Assembly: GCA_018052705.1 (NCBI GenBank)
Contig: JAGPMW010000003.1
Coordinates: 31,451 to 95,450 of the forward strand
DNA length: 64,000 nt
Source: Selenomonas sp.
GTDB taxonomy: Bacteria > Bacillota > Negativicutes > Selenomonadales > Selenomonadaceae
Direction of reading: 5' to 3'
Position numbers and translations under genes: made by a program. The notes under the pieces were generated by a model. It was not told the DNA's origin. It ran no database searches and saw only the letters and a program-made list of their open reading frames with translations. Positions 1,007-61,355 of this stretch are shown here, piece after piece. The stretch's first letter is position 1; each line of letters opens with the position of its first letter.

Positions 1007-1109
1007 AGTTTTGCAGCGAAATATAAAGATGGGTGAAAAAGATCGTGAAAATCCGGCTTAATGTGATAAATATTATAGCCGGATGTCTTGTTTTAAAGTA
1101 TAATGAAAG

Positions 1110-1230
1110 AAAAATAACTCCGAGCAAAAGCATCTACGGTGTTTCACTGACGCTATGATGCTGCGCCTGGGCTTTGGCCCACAGGGGGACAGGAGAAATC
1201 CTGCCGCCTTCCGTTTTGAAAAGGAGCGTT
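1110..1230 (+). promoter_or_regulatory. Probable molybdenum-cofactor (Moco) riboswitch aptamer upstream of modABC
   Basis: It contains blocks I associate with the Moco RNA motif in the expected order: AACUCCGAGC ... GCCUGGGC-uuug-GCCCAC ... CCGCCUUCC ... AAAAGGAGC. A TATAAT lies at 1099-1104 just upstream and a terminator hairpin just downstream. The genomic context (modA) fits. Confidence 0.6.
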
Positions 1231-1266
1231 GAAAGTGATGTCCACAGGACTATTGTGTCTTGTCAG

Positions 1267-5294: not shown

Positions 5295-5328
5295 AAAAGG
5301 CTGCCGCATTTTCGTGTGGCAGCCTTTT
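5295..5328. terminator. Bidirectional intrinsic terminator
   Basis: Stem aaaaggctgcc / ggcagcctttt. A second small hairpin cacccg-gta-cgggtg lies at about 5335-5351. Confidence 0.7.
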
Positions 5329-5367
5329 GGCTCTGCACCCGGTACGGGTGTAATCTCTCATATTTTG

Positions 5368-5796
5368 TTATGCCTGGGCCGCTTTGGCGCTGGCAAGCTC
5401 CTGGCGCAGTCCGTCGTAGAATTTCACCAGGCCGTCAATGATGGCCGCACGGTTTTCTTCGCCGATGTTCACCTGTTTCTTGAGTTCGCGGGTGGTCTCG
5501 ATGATGTTGCCGATGGTCAGGATGTAGTTGTATTCGTCTTCGAGGACCTCGGCAGCATCGAGTGGCGGCAGGCAGGCTACTTGCTGACTCAGCTTGTCGT
5601 ATTGAGTGCTCAGGAGTTTAAGATTTTTTTTCTGAGTCAGTGCGAGATCGAGGTTCTCGGCGTTTACCCGGCTCAGTGCGGTGTTTATTTTGTCACGCAG
5701 GGCATGCATATCGCGGATGCTTTTCTGCAGCACCGTGATATGCCGGCGCATTTTATTGGCTTCAGCCGGACTCAGGTTGATTTGTTCGTCGTTCAT
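5368..5796 (-). CDS. Hypothetical coiled-coil protein (142 aa)
   Basis: ORF 5368..5796. The composition is helical and heptad-like (ITVLQKSIRDMHALRDKINTAL..., LKLLSTQYDKLSQQV). I recognise no motif. It has its own terminators downstream. Confidence 0.5.
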   Translation of the reverse strand: MNDEQINLSPAEANKMRRHITVLQKSIRDMHALRDKINTALSRVNAENLDLALTQKKNLKLLSTQYDKLSQQVACLPPLDAAEVLEDEYNYILTIGNIIETTRELKKQVNIGEENRAAIIDGLVKFYDGLRQELASAKAAQA

Positions 5797-5917
5797 TGTT
5801 TACATCTCCTCATAAAGTCTGATAGAATCTATTGTAGCATATCGTTTGACAAGTTTGCTACAATATTAAATAGGTTAGGAACTGAAATTCGGTAGATAGA
5901 GTTTCTGGGAGATCTGA

Positions 5918-9221: not shown

Positions 9222-9294
9222 AAAGGATATTCCCCCCAAAAGGCGAATGAATAGCAATGACAAGTGGTGTTATTTGATAAAGGGGGAATATGGG

Positions 9295-10050
9295 ATGACT
9301 GATGAAGAACAGCGAAATTTTCGTTATGAGGAAATGCGCGATGCATTTGAAGAAATACTGGATCTGCATAAGCGGACCATTATCCTGGCCATGGAATTGC
9401 ACAAAGCAATGGAAGCAGATCAGGATCTGGTCGGTATCGAAAACAGTAAGGAGTTTCTGGAATTGCTGGCTAAGCAGCGTTCGTTGATTATCATGGGCAT
9501 GGTGCATAAGGTCAATGTGGTTCCCAATGAGATCGAAGGCCGTAAATTGATTCCTTTTCCATTGAAACCCACCTTGTCGAAAATGGACGAAGCATTGCAT
9601 CAGTACATTCCCGATGAAATCGAGCAGTTTGCCAAGTGCCATGCGGAGATTATGCGCATAGCCAATAAGGTTGGCTATTATTACTGGCCTCTGCCTAAAC
9701 AGTGCATCAATCATGTCAAACGCAGTCTGGTGTCTGTTTATGATTGTGCACAGTGCGAGGTGCTGGAGCAGGCAATGGATAACAGCAGCCTGGATAAAGA
9801 AATGTTCCGCCTGCGGCAGCAGGAGGTCTATGAGTTATATCGGAAATGGTCGGTTCAGTTTCGTATGCTGGAGGATTCTGCTGATGATACAGATCTGGCT
9901 GCGCTGCTTAAAAAGATGGATGCCGAGCAGGAGTGCATTCATCATGCAGCCGAAGAACACCAGCAGAAGCGGCAGGTTTCTGTCGAGCAGTGTTATGGCT
10001 GTCTGGTAATCCGGGAGTCATTTCGCAAGCTTGAAAAAAGGAAGAGATAG
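9295..10050 (+). CDS. Hypothetical acidic, helical, Cys-containing protein (about 251 aa)
   Basis: ORF 9247..10050. The preferred start is ATG 9295, preceded by AAGGGGG. The composition looks protein-like. CxxC-type pairs (CAQCEVL, CYGC) are present. I recognise no family. Confidence 0.55.
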   Translation: MTDEEQRNFRYEEMRDAFEEILDLHKRTIILAMELHKAMEADQDLVGIENSKEFLELLAKQRSLIIMGMVHKVNVVPNEIEGRKLIPFPLKPTLSKMDEALHQYIPDEIEQFAKCHAEIMRIANKVGYYYWPLPKQCINHVKRSLVSVYDCAQCEVLEQAMDNSSLDKEMFRLRQQEVYELYRKWSVQFRMLEDSADDTDLAALLKKMDAEQECIHHAAEEHQQKRQVSVEQCYGCLVIRESFRKLEKRKR

Positions 10051-11146: not shown

Positions 11147-11209
11147 AGAAAAAAGACTCCTTTACAATAAACAATCGTATTCCTACAGTATAGCATAGGA
11201 GTGACATGC

Positions 11210-12016
11210 ATGACAAAAATCGTATTTTCTGATATCGATGGGACCTTCCTGACACCGGCGAGCAAGGTCACGAAGCGCACTGGGCAGGCAGTCCGTGATC
11301 TGCTGGCCCGGGAGATTCCCTTTGTGCTGGTATCGGCCCGGATGCCGGAGGCTATTTACCCGATCACGGACGGACTGGGCATCAGGATTCCCATCATCAG
11401 TTACAGCGGCGGACTGGTGCTGACCCGCGAGGGCGTGACACTGGCCAGTACGGTCATGGATGAGGCGGATACCCGCCGGCTTTTGCAGACGATTGCCGTG
11501 CGCTTTCCACAGGTCACGGTAAACTACTATGCGGGCCGCCACTGGTATGTGCGGGATCGGCATGATCCGCGGGTGCAGACCGAGATCGATATCACGACGG
11601 CCCAGCCGACCGAGCAGGATTTTGCTGAGCGGCTGCGGGCCGGCGAACTGCCGAATAAGATCCTCCTCATGGCGGACCCGGCAGACTGTGAGCAGGCAGA
11701 GCAGGAGCTGGCAGCAGCGTTTCCCATGTTTCATGTGGTGCGCTCCGCTCCGTTCCTGCTCGAGATCATGGATCAGTCGGTATCGAAAGCCAGCGGGATC
11801 GAGGTCATGCTGGCGCATTTTGGCCTGACGGCAGCGGAGGCTTTGTCGTTTGGCGACAACTATAACGATCTGGAAATGCTCCGCTATACGGGGCGGAGTG
11901 TGGCCATGGGCAATGCCCCTGATCCGGTGAAAGCAGCGGCAACAGAGGTGACGGCGCCGAATACGGAGGATGGACTCTACCAGTATCTGGTGAAGGCCGG
12001 GCTGATCGAAGCGTAA
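11210..12016 (+). CDS. Cof-type HAD-IIB family hydrolase/phosphatase
   Basis: ORF 11201..12016, start ATG 11210. HAD motif I FSDIDGTFL and C-terminal motif FGDNYNDLEML...AMGNA. Confidence 0.85.
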   Translation: MTKIVFSDIDGTFLTPASKVTKRTGQAVRDLLAREIPFVLVSARMPEAIYPITDGLGIRIPIISYSGGLVLTREGVTLASTVMDEADTRRLLQTIAVRFPQVTVNYYAGRHWYVRDRHDPRVQTEIDITTAQPTEQDFAERLRAGELPNKILLMADPADCEQAEQELAAAFPMFHVVRSAPFLLEIMDQSVSKASGIEVMLAHFGLTAAEALSFGDNYNDLEMLRYTGRSVAMGNAPDPVKAAATEVTAPNTEDGLYQYLVKAGLIEA

Positions 12017-12043
12017 TAGAGGTGTATTGAGGAGGAAAGCAGT

Positions 12044-13069
12044 ATGAGACAAGTAACACTCGGCAGTACGGGCATTACCGTGCCACAGAATGGTTTTGGG
12101 GCCCTCCCCATCCAGCGCGTGACGAAGGATGAGGCGGTGCAGCTGTTGCAGCATGCCTATGCGGGTGGCATCCATTATTTTGATACGGCCCGCGCCTACA
12201 GCGACAGTGAGGAAAAGCTGGGCGCAGCATTCCATTCCTTGTGGGATAAGGTATTCCTGGCAACCAAGACGCATGCGAAGACGCCGGCCGAGTTCTGGCA
12301 GCATCTGGAAACCTCCCTGCGCCTGCTGCAGACGGACTGCATTGATGTGTATCAGTTCCATTGCGTTGAGCAGTGCTGGCGTCCAGGGGATGGATCGGGC
12401 ATGTATGAGGCGATGCTCGAGGCCAGACAGCAGGGCAAGATCCGGCATATCGGTGCGACTGCGCACAAGATCGAAGTCGCGTTTGAATGCGTGGAGTCGG
12501 GGCTCTATGAGACCATGCAATTCCCGTTCAGCTATCTGGCCTCGCCTCGGGAGATTGAGCTGGTGAATCTCTGCCGTGAGAAGAATGTCGGCTTCATTGC
12601 CATGAAGGGGCTGGCCGGCGGGCTGATCAACCGTTCCGAGGCAGCGATGGCCTATATTGCCCACTATGACAATGTGCTGCCCATCTGGGGCATCCAGCGT
12701 GAGCAGGAACTCGCGGAGTGGATCGGTTATATGACTGATACGCCGGCGATGACGGATGAGATTGCTGCGTATATTGCCAAAGAGCAGCAGGCGCTCAGCG
12801 GTGAGTTCTGCCGTGGCTGCGGTTACTGCATGCCGTGTCCGGCTGGTATCGAGATCAATCAGTGTGCCCGCATGTCACTCATGCTGCGCCGTGCACCGTC
12901 CGAAGCCTGGCTGACGCCGGCGATGCAGGCCGAGATGAAGAAGATCGAAGACTGCCTGAACTGCCGCCAGTGTACGCGGAAATGTCCGTATGAGCTCGAT
13001 ACGCCTGAGCTGCTGCGGAAGAACTACGAAGATTATAAGAAGGTCCTGACTGGTGAGACTAAGGTCTGA
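12044..13069 (+). CDS. Aldo/keto reductase with C-terminal 4Fe-4S cluster motif
   Basis: ORF 12044..13069. AKR N-terminal blocks (LGSTGITVPQNGFGALPIQR, FDTARAYSDSE) and a C-terminal Cys cluster CRGCGYCMPCP...CLNCRQCTRKCP. Confidence 0.8.
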   Translation: MRQVTLGSTGITVPQNGFGALPIQRVTKDEAVQLLQHAYAGGIHYFDTARAYSDSEEKLGAAFHSLWDKVFLATKTHAKTPAEFWQHLETSLRLLQTDCIDVYQFHCVEQCWRPGDGSGMYEAMLEARQQGKIRHIGATAHKIEVAFECVESGLYETMQFPFSYLASPREIELVNLCREKNVGFIAMKGLAGGLINRSEAAMAYIAHYDNVLPIWGIQREQELAEWIGYMTDTPAMTDEIAAYIAKEQQALSGEFCRGCGYCMPCPAGIEINQCARMSLMLRRAPSEAWLTPAMQAEMKKIEDCLNCRQCTRKCPYELDTPELLRKNYEDYKKVLTGETKV

Positions 13070-13143
13070 GTTGCGCGGTTTTTAGGGTGATCGGATAAAG
13101 CTATTCATGTTGACGGAAGTATTTATAGGAAGAAGGCGAGCCG

Positions 13144-13386
13144 ATGGAAAGAGCACTGCCAAAAGTCGGCGAGGTATGGCAGCATTTCAAGCAGAAGGAA
13201 TATAAAATCATCGCTTGTCCCGTGACGCATACGGAGACGCGGGAGCAGATGATTTGCTATCAGGCCCTTTACGGGGATTATGGCTATTTTGTACGGCCAC
13301 TGGCTATGTTCATGGAACCAACGGACAAGGTCAAGTATCCAGAGGCTCAGCAGGCGTTCCGCTTCATGAAGAAAAAGAGCGTCTGA
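13144..13386 (+). CDS. DUF1653 domain protein
   Basis: ORF 13144..13386. Contains GEVWQHFKQKEYKIIACPVTHTETREQMICYQALYGDYGYFVRPLAMF, which matches the DUF1653 pattern as I remember it. Confidence 0.65.
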   Translation: MERALPKVGEVWQHFKQKEYKIIACPVTHTETREQMICYQALYGDYGYFVRPLAMFMEPTDKVKYPEAQQAFRFMKKKSV

Positions 13387-13479
13387 TTCAGTGGGCGGAA
13401 ATCCTTCCGTAGATTGAAAATCATACTTACGGGAAGTATGATAAAATGAATATAGATTAATCAGAGGAGGATCTATTTT

Positions 13480-14358
13480 ATGCTTTATACGTTGGAAAAT
13501 GACAAGCTTTGTGTGCTGGTGCGCAGCCATGGAGCAGAACTCCGGTCCATCAAAGAACGCGCTGATGAGACCGAATATCTTTGGGATGGCAATCCGTCCT
13601 GGTGGAAATACAGTTCACCGGTCCTGTTCCCCATTGTTGGCAAGCTGCTCAATGGCAAATACCGTGTGGGCGGGCAGGAATATGAGCTGCCTGGTCATGG
13701 TCTCGGCCGTATCTCGGACTTTGAGCTGGTTGAGCGTCAGGCGGATCGTATCAGGTTCAGCCTCAAATGGACTCAGGAATCGCTCAAGAAATATCCCTGG
13801 AAATTCCAGCTGGATATCGAATATGTCCTGCACGACAATCAGATTGAGGTCATCTGGACCGTACAGAATCTCGATGACAAGGAAATGATCTACTCAATCG
13901 GTTCACATGGTGCATTCCGCTGCCCCATCGTGCCAGGAGAGAAGTTCGAGGACTGCTATCTGGCCTTCAGTGAGGACGAGGATGCGGGCAATATGCAGCT
14001 GGACGCCAAAGGCCAGTTCCAGCACGGCTATGGCACGGCGAAACTCAGCGGCAGGAAACTGGCCCTGAACTATGAGATGTTCCGGAATGATGCGCTGGCG
14101 TATGATAAGCAGAAATCTGATACCGTGTCGATCTGTTCAACGAAAAGCGACAAGAAACTCACTGTGACGGCCAGGGACTTCCCTTACTGGGGGTTCTGGA
14201 CTCCGGATCAGGGCGGTGCGCCGTTCTTATGCATCGAGCCGTGGCATGGACATGCCGATTTTGTCGATTTCACAGGTGAATTCAAAGATCGTGAAGGCAG
14301 CGAATCTCTGTTGCCGGGGAATAAACAGACCTTCCGCTATACCATCCAGATTGGTTGA
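13480..14358 (+). CDS. Aldose 1-epimerase (galactose mutarotase-like, LacX-type) family protein
   Basis: ORF 13480..14358. Mutarotase-like blocks PVLFPIVGKL, GHGLGR and CIEPWHG. Confidence 0.75.
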   Translation: MLYTLENDKLCVLVRSHGAELRSIKERADETEYLWDGNPSWWKYSSPVLFPIVGKLLNGKYRVGGQEYELPGHGLGRISDFELVERQADRIRFSLKWTQESLKKYPWKFQLDIEYVLHDNQIEVIWTVQNLDDKEMIYSIGSHGAFRCPIVPGEKFEDCYLAFSEDEDAGNMQLDAKGQFQHGYGTAKLSGRKLALNYEMFRNDALAYDKQKSDTVSICSTKSDKKLTVTARDFPYWGFWTPDQGGAPFLCIEPWHGHADFVDFTGEFKDREGSESLLPGNKQTFRYTIQIG

Positions 14359-16681: not shown

Positions 16682-16895
16682 AAAAAGCCCCCGTCCGGAA
16701 AAGGACGAGGGCAAATTCCCGTGGTACCACCTTAATTGGATCGCAAAGATCCGCTCAAAGCCTTAACGCGGCTGACGGTCAGGCTTTCGGTCTGACAGCT
16801 CGTGAGCAGCTTTCCCTGTGTTCATCCGACGGTTTACACCAGCCACCGCCTCTCTGCGGGATATCTGACAGGTACTCGTTCAGTCATTGCTTTTT
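16682..16895 (-). promoter_or_regulatory. T-box riboswitch leader (probable Ala specifier GCU) of the alaR-alaT-like operon
   Basis: On the minus strand: K-turn-like ATGAC, AGTA, AG-bulge AGAGAG and distal GGTG. The specifier-loop 3' side is GGAAA-GCT-G (plus strand 16808-16810). The T-box sequence is AAGGTGGTACCACGGG (plus 16718-16733). The terminator is gccctcgtcc/ggacgggggc + T5 (plus 16682-16712). Confidence 0.85.
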
Positions 16896-16908
16896 TCGAT
16901 ATGAGACA

Positions 16909-24808: not shown

Positions 24809-24887
24809 CTTAATATGATTAGTATAGTTTACTATGGAAATTTGCACCAAGGATAAGTTCGAAGAACGAGCAACAATCCTGAATAAG

Positions 24888-25248
24888 GGAGCACAGCGGT
24901 CTTGAAAATTAGACCGCCGCGGAGCCAGCGGACAGTCAACGCTCCACCTGGATGTTCTGCTAAAGAATTTTTTTGCCTTTAATTAAGCATTCCAAAAGGA
25001 GCTAAACGCACTTTGTTTGGACGGACGCTCTTTTGAAACGATCGGTAGTAGGCAAAAAAATTCTTCTTCACGCAGAACATCAAAGCTCCACTTATGACTG
25101 TCCGCTGCCTCTGCGGCTGGGCTTGATGCGTTCAGGGGCTGTTGTCTAAATTAACCATATCGCTGGTTCGTTCATGGAAGTTAAAAGCAGGCAAATTTGT
25201 TCGAATCGAATCCAGACCTGCCAGCAGAAATCAAATTTTACAGGAGCC
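24888..25248 (+). repeat. Copy 1 of an unclassified conserved intergenic element (long bubble-containing hairpin 24911-25123 plus a conserved tail)
   Basis: It aligns along its length with 33410-33794 in the same orientation. The inverted-repeat arms are agaccgccgcggagccagcggacagtc...agaatttttttgcc and ggcaaaaaaattct...gactgtccgctgcctctgcggctgggct. No coding potential is conserved. Confidence 0.8.
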
Positions 25249-25420
25249 TTAACCAATTACCGAGCCCCGTGCTGAGCTTTGACCTACTCGCACCCTGTTC
25301 CTGATTTCTGCAGATAGTCCTTCAGATTCACGTTTATATTGGTGTGTAAATAGAACCAATGGGAATTTCGTGATATAATACTAGACGATATTTTGTTTTT
25401 TATTAGAAAGGGATTAGATA

Positions 25421-31238: not shown

Positions 31239-31324
31239 ATGCGAGTGCTGTGGAATACGGCGCATTTTGAAGAAATCCAGAGAAAATATCCTGTTGTTCT
31301 GGTGTATTGAAAAGGATAGGGAAA

Positions 31325-31505
31325 CCTATTTTTAGCGCAAGTTCTCGTGAGACGCGTTCATTGAACGGTTCATGAGAAGACGAGGAGAAGGTTGTCGAAT
31401 AGTCAGCGGATGCCTTCCGGCCGGTCCGGTCGATAGAAAACGGTTAAATCCCAGGCGTGAGCGTGGGGAAAGAGCGGTTGCAGGACACAACAGGGCACAA
31501 CTTCA
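31325..31505 (+). ncRNA. glmS ribozyme (GlcN6P-dependent self-cleaving riboswitch)
   Basis: It carries the cleavage-site context A-GCGC at 31334-31338. Conserved core blocks are AAGACGAGGA, GGUUGUCGAAU and GCGGAUGCCUUCCGGC. It lies directly upstream of glmS. Confidence 0.9.
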
Positions 31506-31519
31506 TAGGAGGTACTATT

Positions 31520-33349
31520 ATGTGTGGTATCGTAGGTTATGTCGGTGACAAACAGGCAGCGGAGTTCCTGCTGGAAGGTCTTTCCAAGCTGGAGTATCGT
31601 GGCTATGACTCGGCAGGTATTGCTGTCTATAATGATGGTAGTATCCGGGTAGAGAAAAGTGTAGGCCGTCTGGCTTCACTGCGCGATAAGATCAAGGACG
31701 ACGTTCCGCAGGGGACGATGGGCATTGGTCATACCCGCTGGGCTACGCATGGCCGTCCGTCTGATGCCAACTCGCATCCGCATACGGACTGCTCCGGTGA
31801 TTTCGTCGTTGTCCATAACGGCATCATCGAGAACTACCTGACGCTCAAAGAGGATCTCATTGAGAAAGGGCATGCTTTTAAGTCCGAGACGGATACAGAG
31901 GTCGTAGCTCATCTGCTCGAAGAGATCTACAATGGAGACTTTGTGTCTTCGGTCCGCGAGGTACTGCGCCGTATCGACGGTGCATATTCCCTCGTATTCA
32001 TGAGCAGCAAACATCCGGGAATGCTGATTGCCGCCAAGCAGGATAACCCGCTGGTCATTGGTATTGGCGAGGGTGAGAACTTCATTGCTTCGGATATCCC
32101 GGCGATCATCCAGCGTACCCGCCGCACCTACATCCTCAACGATGGGGAGCTGGCTGTACTCACGAAGGATTCCATCAAGATTACCAACCGTCAGGGTGAG
32201 CCCGTGACGAAGAAGGTATTCGAAGTCAACTGGAATGCTGAAGCGGCTGAAAAGGGCGGCTATGAGCATTTCATGCTCAAGGAAATCCATGAGCAGCCGA
32301 AGGCTGTCCGTGACACGATGAGCCAGCGCATTGCCAAAGATGGCAAGTCCATTGTTATGGATGAGCTGAAATGGGATGCGGATTATCTCAATTCCTTCAA
32401 CAAGATCTATATTGTTGCCTGCGGCACAGCTTATCATGCCGGTCTGGTGGGCAAGTTCTATATCGAGAAGCTGGCGCGTACGGTGGTCGAGGTCGATGTG
32501 GCTTCCGAGTTCCGTTATCGTGAGCCGATTGTCGACGAGAATACGCTGTTCATTGCGGTTTCGCAGTCTGGTGAGACGAGTGATACGCTGGCAGCGATGA
32601 AAGAGTCCAAGCGCCTTGGTGCGAAGACGCTGGCGCTGACCAATGTGGTCGGTTCGTCCATTGCCCGCGAAGCCGATCAGGTACTCTATACCTGGGCTGG
32701 CCCGGAGATTGCTGTTGCCTCGACGAAAGCCTATACGACGCAGATTGTATTGTTCTTCATGCTTGCGCTTTATATGGCCGAGATCAAAGGAACGCAGAAG
32801 CCGGAACGGGTGGCAGAGCTTATCGCTATGCTCAAGGATATCCCAAATGGCATTGGCAATACGTTGTCGGATGTTGAACCAATCAAGACTTTTGCGAAGC
32901 AGTATGGCTTCAATGAGGATGTGTTCTACATTGGCCGCTCGCTGGATTATGATGTCGCACTCGAAGGCTCGCTGAAGCTCAAGGAGATTTCCTACATTCA
33001 TGCTGAGGCTTATGCGGCTGGTGAACTTAAGCATGGTACGCTGGCCCTGATCGTTGAGGGTGTGCCGGTTATCGCACTGGCTACGCAGAAGAGTGTCTAT
33101 GAGAAGACGCTCTCCAACATCAAAGAGGTTAAGGCTCGTGATGCCGTTGTTATCGGTATTGCTTCCGAGGGCGATGAGGAACTGGAGAAGTATGTGGATC
33201 ATGTTATCAGGATTCCGGAAACGGATGAGCTCCTGATTCCTATCCTGGCGGTAGTTCCATTGCAGCTCCTCGCTTACTATGCCGCAATCACGCGTGGCTG
33301 CGATGTAGATAAACCACGCAACCTGGCAAAATCTGTTACGGTTGAGTAA
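31520..33349 (+). CDS. glmS: Glutamine--fructose-6-phosphate aminotransferase (isomerizing) GlmS
   Basis: ORF 31457..33349. The true start is ATG 31520 (MCGIVGYVG, with the catalytic Cys at residue 2), preceded by AGGAGG. The C-terminus is the canonical KSVTVE. Confidence 0.95.
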   Translation: MCGIVGYVGDKQAAEFLLEGLSKLEYRGYDSAGIAVYNDGSIRVEKSVGRLASLRDKIKDDVPQGTMGIGHTRWATHGRPSDANSHPHTDCSGDFVVVHNGIIENYLTLKEDLIEKGHAFKSETDTEVVAHLLEEIYNGDFVSSVREVLRRIDGAYSLVFMSSKHPGMLIAAKQDNPLVIGIGEGENFIASDIPAIIQRTRRTYILNDGELAVLTKDSIKITNRQGEPVTKKVFEVNWNAEAAEKGGYEHFMLKEIHEQPKAVRDTMSQRIAKDGKSIVMDELKWDADYLNSFNKIYIVACGTAYHAGLVGKFYIEKLARTVVEVDVASEFRYREPIVDENTLFIAVSQSGETSDTLAAMKESKRLGAKTLALTNVVGSSIAREADQVLYTWAGPEIAVASTKAYTTQIVLFFMLALYMAEIKGTQKPERVAELIAMLKDIPNGIGNTLSDVEPIKTFAKQYGFNEDVFYIGRSLDYDVALEGSLKLKEISYIHAEAYAAGELKHGTLALIVEGVPVIALATQKSVYEKTLSNIKEVKARDAVVIGIASEGDEELEKYVDHVIRIPETDELLIPILAVVPLQLLAYYAAITRGCDVDKPRNLAKSVTVE

Positions 33350-33373: not shown

Positions 33374-33407
33374 AGTCGCAGTGAAGTATTTCGCTGCGGC
33401 TATTTTT
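33374..33407 (+). terminator. Intrinsic terminator after glmS
   Basis: Stem agtcgcag / ctgcggct followed by attttt. Confidence 0.65.
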
Positions 33408-33409
33408 GT

Positions 33410-33794
33410 GGAGCACTACGGCCTGCTGATCGTAACGAACCGGGATTGGCAGAAATAAGACCGCCGCGAGGACAGTGCCTAGCCAACGTTCCACCTGGGT
33501 AACCTGCTAAAGAATTTTTTTGCCGTTCAATTAAGCATTCCAAAAGGAGCTAAACGCACTTCGTTTGAACGGACGCTCTTTTGAAACAATCGGTAGCAGG
33601 CAAAAAAATTCTTCTTAACGCAGAACACCAAGGCTCCACTTATGGCTATGCGCTGCCCACGCGGCTGGGCTCGATGTATAAAGGCTTGTTGTGTCTTAAA
33701 GCTACATCCCGAGTTCATTAATGGATGTCAAAATTGAGCTCATCTGCTCGAATCAAATCCAGACCTGCCAGCAGAAAAGGATTTTAGCAGCAGC
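33410..33794 (+). repeat. Copy 2 of the unclassified conserved intergenic element (hairpin 33458-33671 plus a conserved tail)
   Basis: It aligns with 24888-25248 in the same orientation. The stem sequences differ from copy 1 by paired (compensatory) substitutions. It has a 33-nt insertion in the first small hairpin loop. Confidence 0.8.
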
Positions 33795-33914
33795 CGGAAC
33801 GATTGACGGTGGGCGAGGGGAAACTTTATGGTCGCGGAGATTCAGGAAAAGAGGTATAATAAAGCAGATTGGATTTTAATGATGATTGGATAAGGAAAAA
33901 GGTGAATATATTCT

Positions 33915-61096: not shown

Positions 61097-61355
61097 CATA
61101 TAATAGAATAGCAGGGAAGAAGAGGAGTACAGCATTCGGGCGGCTCAGCGAGGAGACGGCAGGTGAAAGTCTTTGCGACGGATGGTGGAAGGTAGCTTCG
61201 GAGCTGCCGGGCTGAATCTGGCATGCCAGGGTAGGTCCGGTCGTCAGGCCGCGTTAAGGCTGTGAGTCCCGCATCCATGTTACTGGCTGCAGGAGAAGAT
61301 TGGTGGTACCACGATAGCAGACGCTTTCGTCCTTTTGGACGGAGGCGTTTTATAG
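61097..61355 (+). promoter_or_regulatory. T-box riboswitch leader, Val specifier (GUA)
   Basis: AGTA, specifier-loop GGAAG-GTA-G (GTA at 61192-61194). The T-box sequence AGATTGGTGGTACCACG has UGGU, matching the A73 discriminator. The terminator is acgctttcgtcc / ggacggaggcgt + ttta (61321-61355). Confidence 0.9.

Follow-up and report, generated by a model that had tools for sequence, protein, structure and literature searches.

Replacement, opposite orientations and deletion among close Selenomonas strains of a modular intergenic repeat with a covarying hairpin

Is the long hairpin between glmS and phoH in the genome of a Selenomonas sp. a control RNA for the gene that follows, or a part of something larger that changes place and orientation? 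We addressed this question in a stretch of 64,000 nucleotides (positions 31,451–95,450 of contig JAGPMW010000003.1, assembly GCA_018052705.1), referred to below as the window. The element in question occurs twice in it: copy 1 is located between a divergent BioB-like radical-SAM gene and a DUF4127 gene, and copy 2 between glmS and phoH. A preliminary description, made from the letters of the window alone, had taken base changes in the stems of the two copies as a sign of a selected plus-strand RNA (or single-stranded DNA, ssDNA) structure. We show here that the hairpin rod is a selected structure of single-stranded nucleic acid, and that copies of the element stand at many unrelated intergenic sites in both orientations and are replaced, found inverted and deleted among close strains. 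The interpretation that we favor, with middling confidence, is that positions 33433–33825 are a truncated and probably immobile copy of a foldback repeat that is non-coding, built of modules and found in a few Selenomonas-like bacteria. Its kind is best read as a lineage-restricted foldback repeat of the type of miniature inverted-repeat transposable elements (MITEs), ERIC and BOX, with an unusually conserved structured interior.

The two copies in the window are 80.3% identical over 346 nt (blastn, E = 2.6e-85) and both lie on the plus strand, which for parts of the element is an orientation convention only. Copy 2 had been placed at 33410–33794; it runs instead from about 33433 to 33825 and is 99% identical over 33437–33825 to the full-length allele L029 (blastn; related loci and contigs are designated by L numbers). 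On the plus strand, it opens with a terminal inverted-repeat-like motif, TAACGAACCGGGATT (33433–33447), which was delineated by aligning the left ends of L029, L037, L025 and L028 and fits the family motif C.A.AAA..GGRATTT. The hairpin rod, the feature that the preliminary description was concerned with, occupies 33461–33668 and is assigned no strand, and the tail (33669–33825, plus strand, conservation of ~70%) ends at a deletion junction within a repeated GGGAAACT. Copy 2 retains the left terminal-repeat region, the rod and the tail and is devoid of two modules, M2 and M3, and of the right terminal repeat, all of which are present in L007 and L029, alleles of the same locus. What had appeared as a 33-nt insertion in the first small hairpin of copy 2 is the left terminal-repeat region of the element, as the comparison with L029, L025 and L037 demonstrates. 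Copy 1 (about 24857–25337, plus strand) consists of a partial left leader, the rod (24914–25121, no strand), the tail, M3 (25257–25323, plus strand; ACCGAGCCCCGTGCTGAGC...ACTCGCACCCTGT..., homologous to M3 of L021, L024, L025 and L029) and a right terminal inverted repeat found by pattern scan (25324–25337, plus strand; AGATTCACGTTTAT). It contains no M2, and its left terminal repeat is not clear. The 14-mer at its right end, together with the flank, also borders the inverted allele in L028.

Complete copies are 760–795 bp long, non-coding and modular. They are bounded by terminal inverted repeats of about 14–17 bp (CGATAAACTGGAAT ... ATTCCAGTTTATCG), which are perfect over 14 bp in L022 (CGATAAACTGGAAT at 2048–2061 and its exact reverse complement at 2829–2842) and near-perfect, with 2 mismatches, in L024 and L021; the end motif is also common to L025, L029, L037, L028 and copy 1. 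Between the ends, an optional left module, M0, is followed by the rod, a variable tail, the optional M2 and the right module M3. M0 recurs in inverted form (~100 nt) as the right end of L047, which has terminal repeats of ~100 nt as a result. The rod, ~208 nt in length, combines a basal stem, GC-rich and variable from copy to copy, with a mid stem, an A/T stem of 15 bp (AAGAATTTTTTTGCC / GGCAAAAAAATTCTT in copy 2) and a near-invariant apical region of ~70 nt. M2 spans ~180 nt and is enclosed by a stem (AACTATTTTTTTCG... / ...CGAAAAAAATAGTT) that covaries between copies (GGCT/AGCC, CGTCC/GGACG, CACCC/GGGTG); a 38-nt block inside M2 is invariant in every M2-bearing copy recovered, across lineages whose flanks do not align. 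Complementarity over 7 nt was observed between GACGGAC in the rod apex (window 24975–25050) and GTCCGTC in the M2 block (L021 and L029). Long-range pairing of the two was not used as evidence, because both sides are invariant and a 7-nt match is expected by chance. No reading frame is open across the copies, and the spurious open reading frames (ORFs) over the rod that are annotated as hypothetical proteins, such as MCH3958122.1 of Selenomonas sp. (L021:6039–6585, L024:2834–3187), are not conserved between them. A Shine-Dalgarno-like AAAGGAG in the rod apex varies (GGAGC, GCAGC, GAAGC) at a bulge position.

The stems from which the preliminary description had argued are indeed present in both window copies and could be read directly from the sequence. 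In copy 1, CAGCGGACAGTC / GACTGTCCGCTG forms 12 Watson-Crick pairs; in copy 2, the equivalent CAGTGCCTAGCC / GGCTATGCGCTG has three of these pairs swapped for other Watson-Crick pairs, one U·G pair and one C·U mismatch, and the outer stem contains the reported changes from G·U to G-C and from A-U to G-C. That such compensatory changes imply a selected structure is supported far more strongly by the homologues collected here, 10–11 copies from three lineages, than two copies could show. In the plus-strand alignment of 10 copies, 64 pairs are predicted with 98.3% of the cells paired, and 18 of these pairs contain double changes, compared to 6.4±1.8 in column shuffles (0/500). The minus-strand reading of 11 copies yields 75 pairs, 97.7% paired, with 21 double-change pairs compared to 9.2±1.8 (0/500). 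Slid controls gave 0–2 double-change pairs on the 10 copies and 0–3 over both alignments. In the basal stem, 37 of the 56 columns are variable and still paired; the apical region has 16 variable columns out of 74. The folds are also stable relative to shuffled sequences, with z-scores of −5.3 (copy 1) and −4.2 (copy 2) on the plus strand and −7.4 and −5.0 on the minus strand, where the energies are lower; the whole-element folds have z-scores of −8.8 and −7.6, and folding of the whole element is similar on the two strands. The rod thus is a selected structure of a single-stranded nucleic acid, and the covariation fits a folded RNA and a folded DNA strand equally well.

Pairing could be kept without selection if quasipalindrome template switching and gene conversion copied changes from one arm of the hairpin to the other. 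Copies do recombine (see below for the M2 arms of L022), those within a strain are homogenized, and both wobble types are present in the stems. Furthermore, 8 of the 20 alternative pair types need two transversions with no wobble intermediate, so that templated copying between the arms may contribute to the pattern. Yet every copy has the same bulges, internal loops and mismatches and the same three A·C/G·U positions, none of them 'corrected', which argues that the pairing reflects more than simple homogenization of a palindrome. In addition, loop and apex sequences are better conserved than the stems, and templated repair would cover the origin of the compensation but not the persistence of the rod despite easy hairpin-spanning deletions. 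We therefore give this explanation a small chance.

Which strand folds? The preliminary description had assigned the structure to the plus strand on the basis of its G-U pairs, and this assignment fails. In the stems shared by both strands (plus-derived pair set), G·T and A·C each occur in 8 cells and 7 columns. Within the 12-bp stem, the single U·G pair of copy 2 is specific to the strain of the window: the alleles L002, L010 and L029 have C-G at this position, so that the U·G is a recent mutation rather than a conserved wobble. The consensus rod fold has an energy of −104.6 to −107 kcal/mol on the minus strand, against −75 on the plus strand, and in 10 of the 11 copies the rod is more stable on the minus strand, with a mean difference of 14.4 kcal/mol. 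Six pairs unique to the minus strand alternate exclusively between Watson-Crick and G·U states (for instance, GC:6/GU:5, UA:6/UG:5 and GU:9/AU:1/GC:1), and no covariation was found for the helix that the apex forms on the plus strand alone. In every copy scanned, a U-rich tract comes after the GC-rich base of the rod, and it does so on the minus strand only. In copy 2, this terminator-like rod end, a GC-rich stem base followed by CTTATTTCTG, is located at 33455–33476 on the minus strand, and equivalent sites are present in copy 1 (24905–24931), L021, L024 and L025. If the rod is considered by itself, the minus strand is favored. M2, in contrast, is more stable on the plus strand in 7 of 7 copies, by 4–11 kcal/mol, and hence we do not assign a strand to the whole element.

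The element was then compared among contigs that encode exactly the GlmS and/or PhoH proteins of the window. Four structural alleles of the glmS–phoH spacer were found in these: full-length in plus orientation (L007, L029); truncated in plus orientation (the window; L001 is also plus); inverted as a whole, without M2 and 84% identical to the plus allele in the comparison of L029 with L037 (L003, L037–L039); and inverted but without the rod, which was deleted at a GCTG microhomology (L005, L006, L035). The glmS terminator hairpin (33376–33406, plus strand), which flanks the element and lies outside it, is identical across all alleles of the locus. At the DUF4127 locus, the element is in plus orientation in the window and inverted in L028. 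The inverted copies at the two window loci are 96% alike and close to L025, a third locus, but only 87–90% like the plus-orientation copy at their own locus, indicating that interiors do not diverge in place but are exchanged or homogenized from locus to locus. L022 (2440–2640) attests directly to recombination among copies: the arms of its M2 stem are derived from different copy types (5' CGTCC as in L024, 3' GGCTTCC as in L021), so that the stem is mismatched. Where M2, the rod or the right half has been lost, the deletion in each case lies between short direct repeats at the hairpin foot, a pattern typical of palindrome instability.

These alleles bear directly on the possibility, raised in the preliminary description, that the element is a plus-strand structured leader or cis-regulatory RNA ahead of phoH and the DUF4127 gene. 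Both window copies do lie upstream of plus-strand genes, as had been stated, and a few G·U pairs are found on the plus strand. A functional tie does not follow, given that sister strains carry the element the other way round at these loci and that the contexts of the copies are varied, with convergent genes after some of those in the Selenomonas metagenome-assembled genome (MAG) lineage described below. Moreover, a −10-like hexamer, TATAAT, lies between the element and the start codon of both phoH and the DUF4127 gene; judged by eye on the sequence, these hexamers may be the genes' own promoters. The plus-type wobbles are singletons that are equalled in number by A·C states, and the plus-specific apical helix does not covary. 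Membership in a class of cis-regulatory leaders or riboswitches was likewise rejected, as neither position nor orientation is constant relative to any gene class. We regard the link of the element to the two genes as incidental, because strains with identical GlmS and PhoH have it inverted, full-length or hairpin-deleted, and a plus-strand control RNA for phoH as very unlikely.

The same alleles resemble invertible DNA switches (invertons), such as the polysaccharide promoters of Bacteroides fragilis and cwpV of Clostridioides difficile. Here, a trans-encoded invertase would flip the segment, and the rod with its U-tract would stop read-through in one orientation. As in those systems, homologous segments flanked by inverted repeats are found in both orientations at one locus, in this case at both window loci and between identical flanking proteins; the repeat on the downstream side is the same in both alleles, and the terminator-like hairpin is orientation-dependent, with its signal on one strand only. 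However, plus and inverted alleles diverge by ~16% in sequence and have different modules, and thus are different family members rather than flips of one segment; their glmS-side repeats are not the same either. On account of these differences in sequence, modules and one border repeat, we reject a simple inversion model. We found no outward-facing promoter within the element, and the window proteins include no recombinase. The genes on either side have housekeeping functions, and the −10-like TATAAT of each downstream gene lies outside the segment. Switches of this kind are accordingly improbable here. By-eye comparison of the borders with Xer/dif-like and Hin/Gin-like sites revealed a resemblance that was inconsistent across copies, and these candidates were discarded.

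A rival of more substance, although still rather unlikely in our judgment, is that the copies are genes for a large structured non-coding RNA of about 0.6–0.8 kb, with the terminal repeats as its closing helix and the window copies as pseudogenes. The minus-strand rod would then be a long 3' hairpin that also terminates transcription, and the RNA could ride on a mobile cassette. HEARO/IscB ωRNA, OLE, ROOL, GOLLD and 6S RNA are comparable in that they combine a length of hundreds of nucleotides with covarying stems, invariant loops and optional domains; HEARO also has several ORF-less copies per genome, and a rod with internal bubbles is a loose likeness to 6S RNA. The covarying stems with near-invariant apical and loop segments, the optional stem-enclosed domains with the covarying M2 closing stem, and the 38-nt M2 block that is invariant between lineages with unalignable flanks all speak for such an RNA, as do the fixed G·U pairs confined to the minus strand of the rod, the U-tract after it and the whole-element folds (z = −8.8 and −7.6). 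On the other side, rod and M2 favor opposite strands, and alleles without rod, M2 or M3 persist in otherwise identical strains, such decaying alleles being common here. Perfect A/T helices of 15–22 bp are unusual in functional RNAs, and no covariance model matched on either strand. In searches against Rfam 15, which includes OLE, GOLLD, ROOL, HEARO, 6S, group I/II introns and small ribozymes, the window at the gathering score gave no match for the element, and the E-value mode (E ≤ 0.1 to 10), applied to both copies and nine related loci, returned only chance matches to eukaryotic hairpin families.

A conserved sigma-70-type promoter was found on neither strand in the copies scanned, which also counts against an RNA gene. 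A weak promoter-like pair, TTGAAA-17-AAAAAT (9 of 12), is present within the rod in every copy scanned (25033–25061 and 33581–33609 in the window). By eye, a mirror pair, TTGGAA-17-AAAAAT, can be seen on the other strand; in a folded single strand, both would be in the duplex stem. Candidate sigma-54 and sigma-70 promoters in M2 and M3 were considered, and none was convincing.

How far does the family extend? Genomes and metagenomes were scanned with a single exact 19-mer from the apex, so that copy number and taxonomic range are lower bounds. Among genomes sampled at one per species, a single one matched, a Selenomonas sp. MAG (JAKVOG01), at four places; the metagenome scan recovered five further true copies. 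A profile of one spurious reading frame led to three clusters of pseudo-proteins, one of which contains the MAG protein MCH3958122.1. Most cluster members lie on contigs of 690–1117 nt, approximately the length of the element itself, as expected of a collapsed repeat. These clusters gave six further contigs (L043–L047) with five usable new copies; L044 is an assembly chimera. A concatenated six-frame pseudo-protein query retrieved no copies, its candidate list probably having been swamped, and the 63-aa pseudo-ORF of the window gave no match. Altogether, about eight loci are present in the Selenomonas MAG lineage (L021–L024, L043, L045, L046 and L047) and at least three in the lineage of the window. 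The neighbors of the copies are unrelated. Many metagenome contigs break at the element, and several end at its borders; in the sewage metagenome ERZ22666027, neither of the two spacers assembled. In L046 (1–1117), a 23S rRNA gene (Rfam LSU match at 1–328) precedes the copy in the same orientation, and its 3' end lies 49 nt before the start of the element; the copy is missing the first 76 nt, including the left repeat, and a second CAGTTTATC motif is located 9 nt past its right repeat.

Two of these contigs merit separate mention. The right flank of L045 (640–747) contains several DnaA-box-like sequences (TGTCCACA, GTGGATAA and TGTGGATAA) and may be an origin or dnaA-promoter region. L044 (1–545) is palindromic: a reverse-complemented tail meets the rod at a perfect basal stem, followed by the forward rod and tail. 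Most likely, the assembler jumped strands at the 22-bp inverted repeat, and the head-to-head arrangement is not real.

No match was obtained in collections of phages, plasmids (n=72,556) and viral contigs, and we found nothing relevant in the literature on repeats and RNA motifs of Selenomonas or Negativicutes. The family is thus absent from Rfam and from the collections and literature searched, while structured intergenic repeats are known as a kind. Among these, MITEs and foldback elements such as Correia/NEMIS and RUP share with the element described here a short, non-coding, intergenic sequence, terminal inverted repeats and extensive self-pairing, as well as the presence of several copies per genome in both orientations and apparent insertion/deletion polymorphism between strains. 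The present family differs from them in its size (up to 795 bp) and optional stem-enclosed modules, and no parent insertion sequence is known for it. ERIC (also IRU) and the pneumococcal BOX are, in general terms, also intergenic, non-coding imperfect palindromes with optional internal modules and compensatory pairing, and no mobilizing enzyme is known for them. They belong to other taxa, have no sequence similarity to the element and are much shorter, ERIC being about 127 bp. The copy number here is low by comparison, about ten per genome as far as sampled. A further likeness is to the ssDNA hairpin origins and promoters of plasmids, namely, the sso of rolling-circle plasmids and Frpo/ssi of conjugative plasmids, in which an orientation-specific hairpin of 200–300 nt has promoter-like hexamers in its stem, comparable to the weak pair in the rod. 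The copies studied here are instead chromosomal, dispersed among housekeeping genes and bounded by terminal repeats, with no rep or relaxase context and no similarity to the plasmids searched.

Several observations weigh against a MITE-like foldback repeat, in addition to the single-probe basis of the scans. No consistent direct repeat that could represent a target-site duplication flanks L022, L024, L021, L025, L029/L037, L046 or L047, and no truly empty site was recovered for any locus. Conservation is higher in the interior, that is, in the rod apex and the M2 block, than in the terminal repeats; a typical MITE shows the opposite, and the pattern is consistent with an RNA gene or a mechanism that depends on structure. 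Plus and inverted alleles at both window loci have an identical border repeat beside the downstream gene, which suggests exchange or inversion at fixed sites rather than transposition with the element's own ends. No gene for a partner protein was found; the proteins of the window are all of the housekeeping type. The lack of a target duplication, of an empty site and of a partner gene, combined with the conserved interior, keeps a large-RNA payload under consideration, possibly on a mobile cassette. A mobile cassette with a new large structured RNA as its payload (rod and invariant M2) would explain together the conserved interior, the absence of a target duplication and the replacement of copies at the same site. 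The payload might be a guide or scaffold that serves a recombinase or nuclease whose gene lies elsewhere in the genome, or an RNA or ssDNA structure directing the copying of the element itself. We consider such a cassette unlikely.

Under the foldback-repeat interpretation that we favor, the rod and M2 would be cis-acting parts needed for the propagation or maintenance of the element itself and would act in single-stranded form, as ssDNA or as a transcript. A recombinase or transposase encoded elsewhere would act on the terminal motif without generating a target-site duplication. No recombinase or transposase gene is present among the window proteins, and a trans-acting enzyme elsewhere in the genome is possible. 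Any effect on phoH or the DUF4127 gene would be a side effect, such as orientation-dependent termination of read-through by the rod and its U-tract.

LptC/LptD-like proteins, T-box leaders and a glmS ribozyme, found together in the neighborhood of the element, indicate a diderm Firmicute. The ribozyme (31323–31491, 85 bits) lies upstream of glmS, and the GTG start at 31457 listed for that ORF falls within it; related contigs call the glmS start at 31520. T-box leaders are located at 16698–16896 (minus strand) and 61105–61337 (plus strand), and a molybdenum-cofactor riboswitch (1106–1242, plus strand) is found ahead of an ABC transporter operon encoding a solute-binding protein, a permease and an ATPase. 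Four sizeable ORFs have no Pfam match: 5314–5895 (193 aa), 9247–10050 (267 aa), 11183–12664 (493 aa) and 13123–13530 (135 aa).

Recognition of the family removes a tempting false lead, as there is no phoH leader RNA here, and accounts for the assembly breaks at both spacers in this organism. It also calls for correction of the 'hypothetical protein' annotation that parts of the element have received in a public MAG. Among bacterial intergenic repeats, constraint on both structure and sequence inside the element while whole copies turn over is unusual, and the family is tractable for asking how structured non-coding repeats spread and why their hairpins persist.

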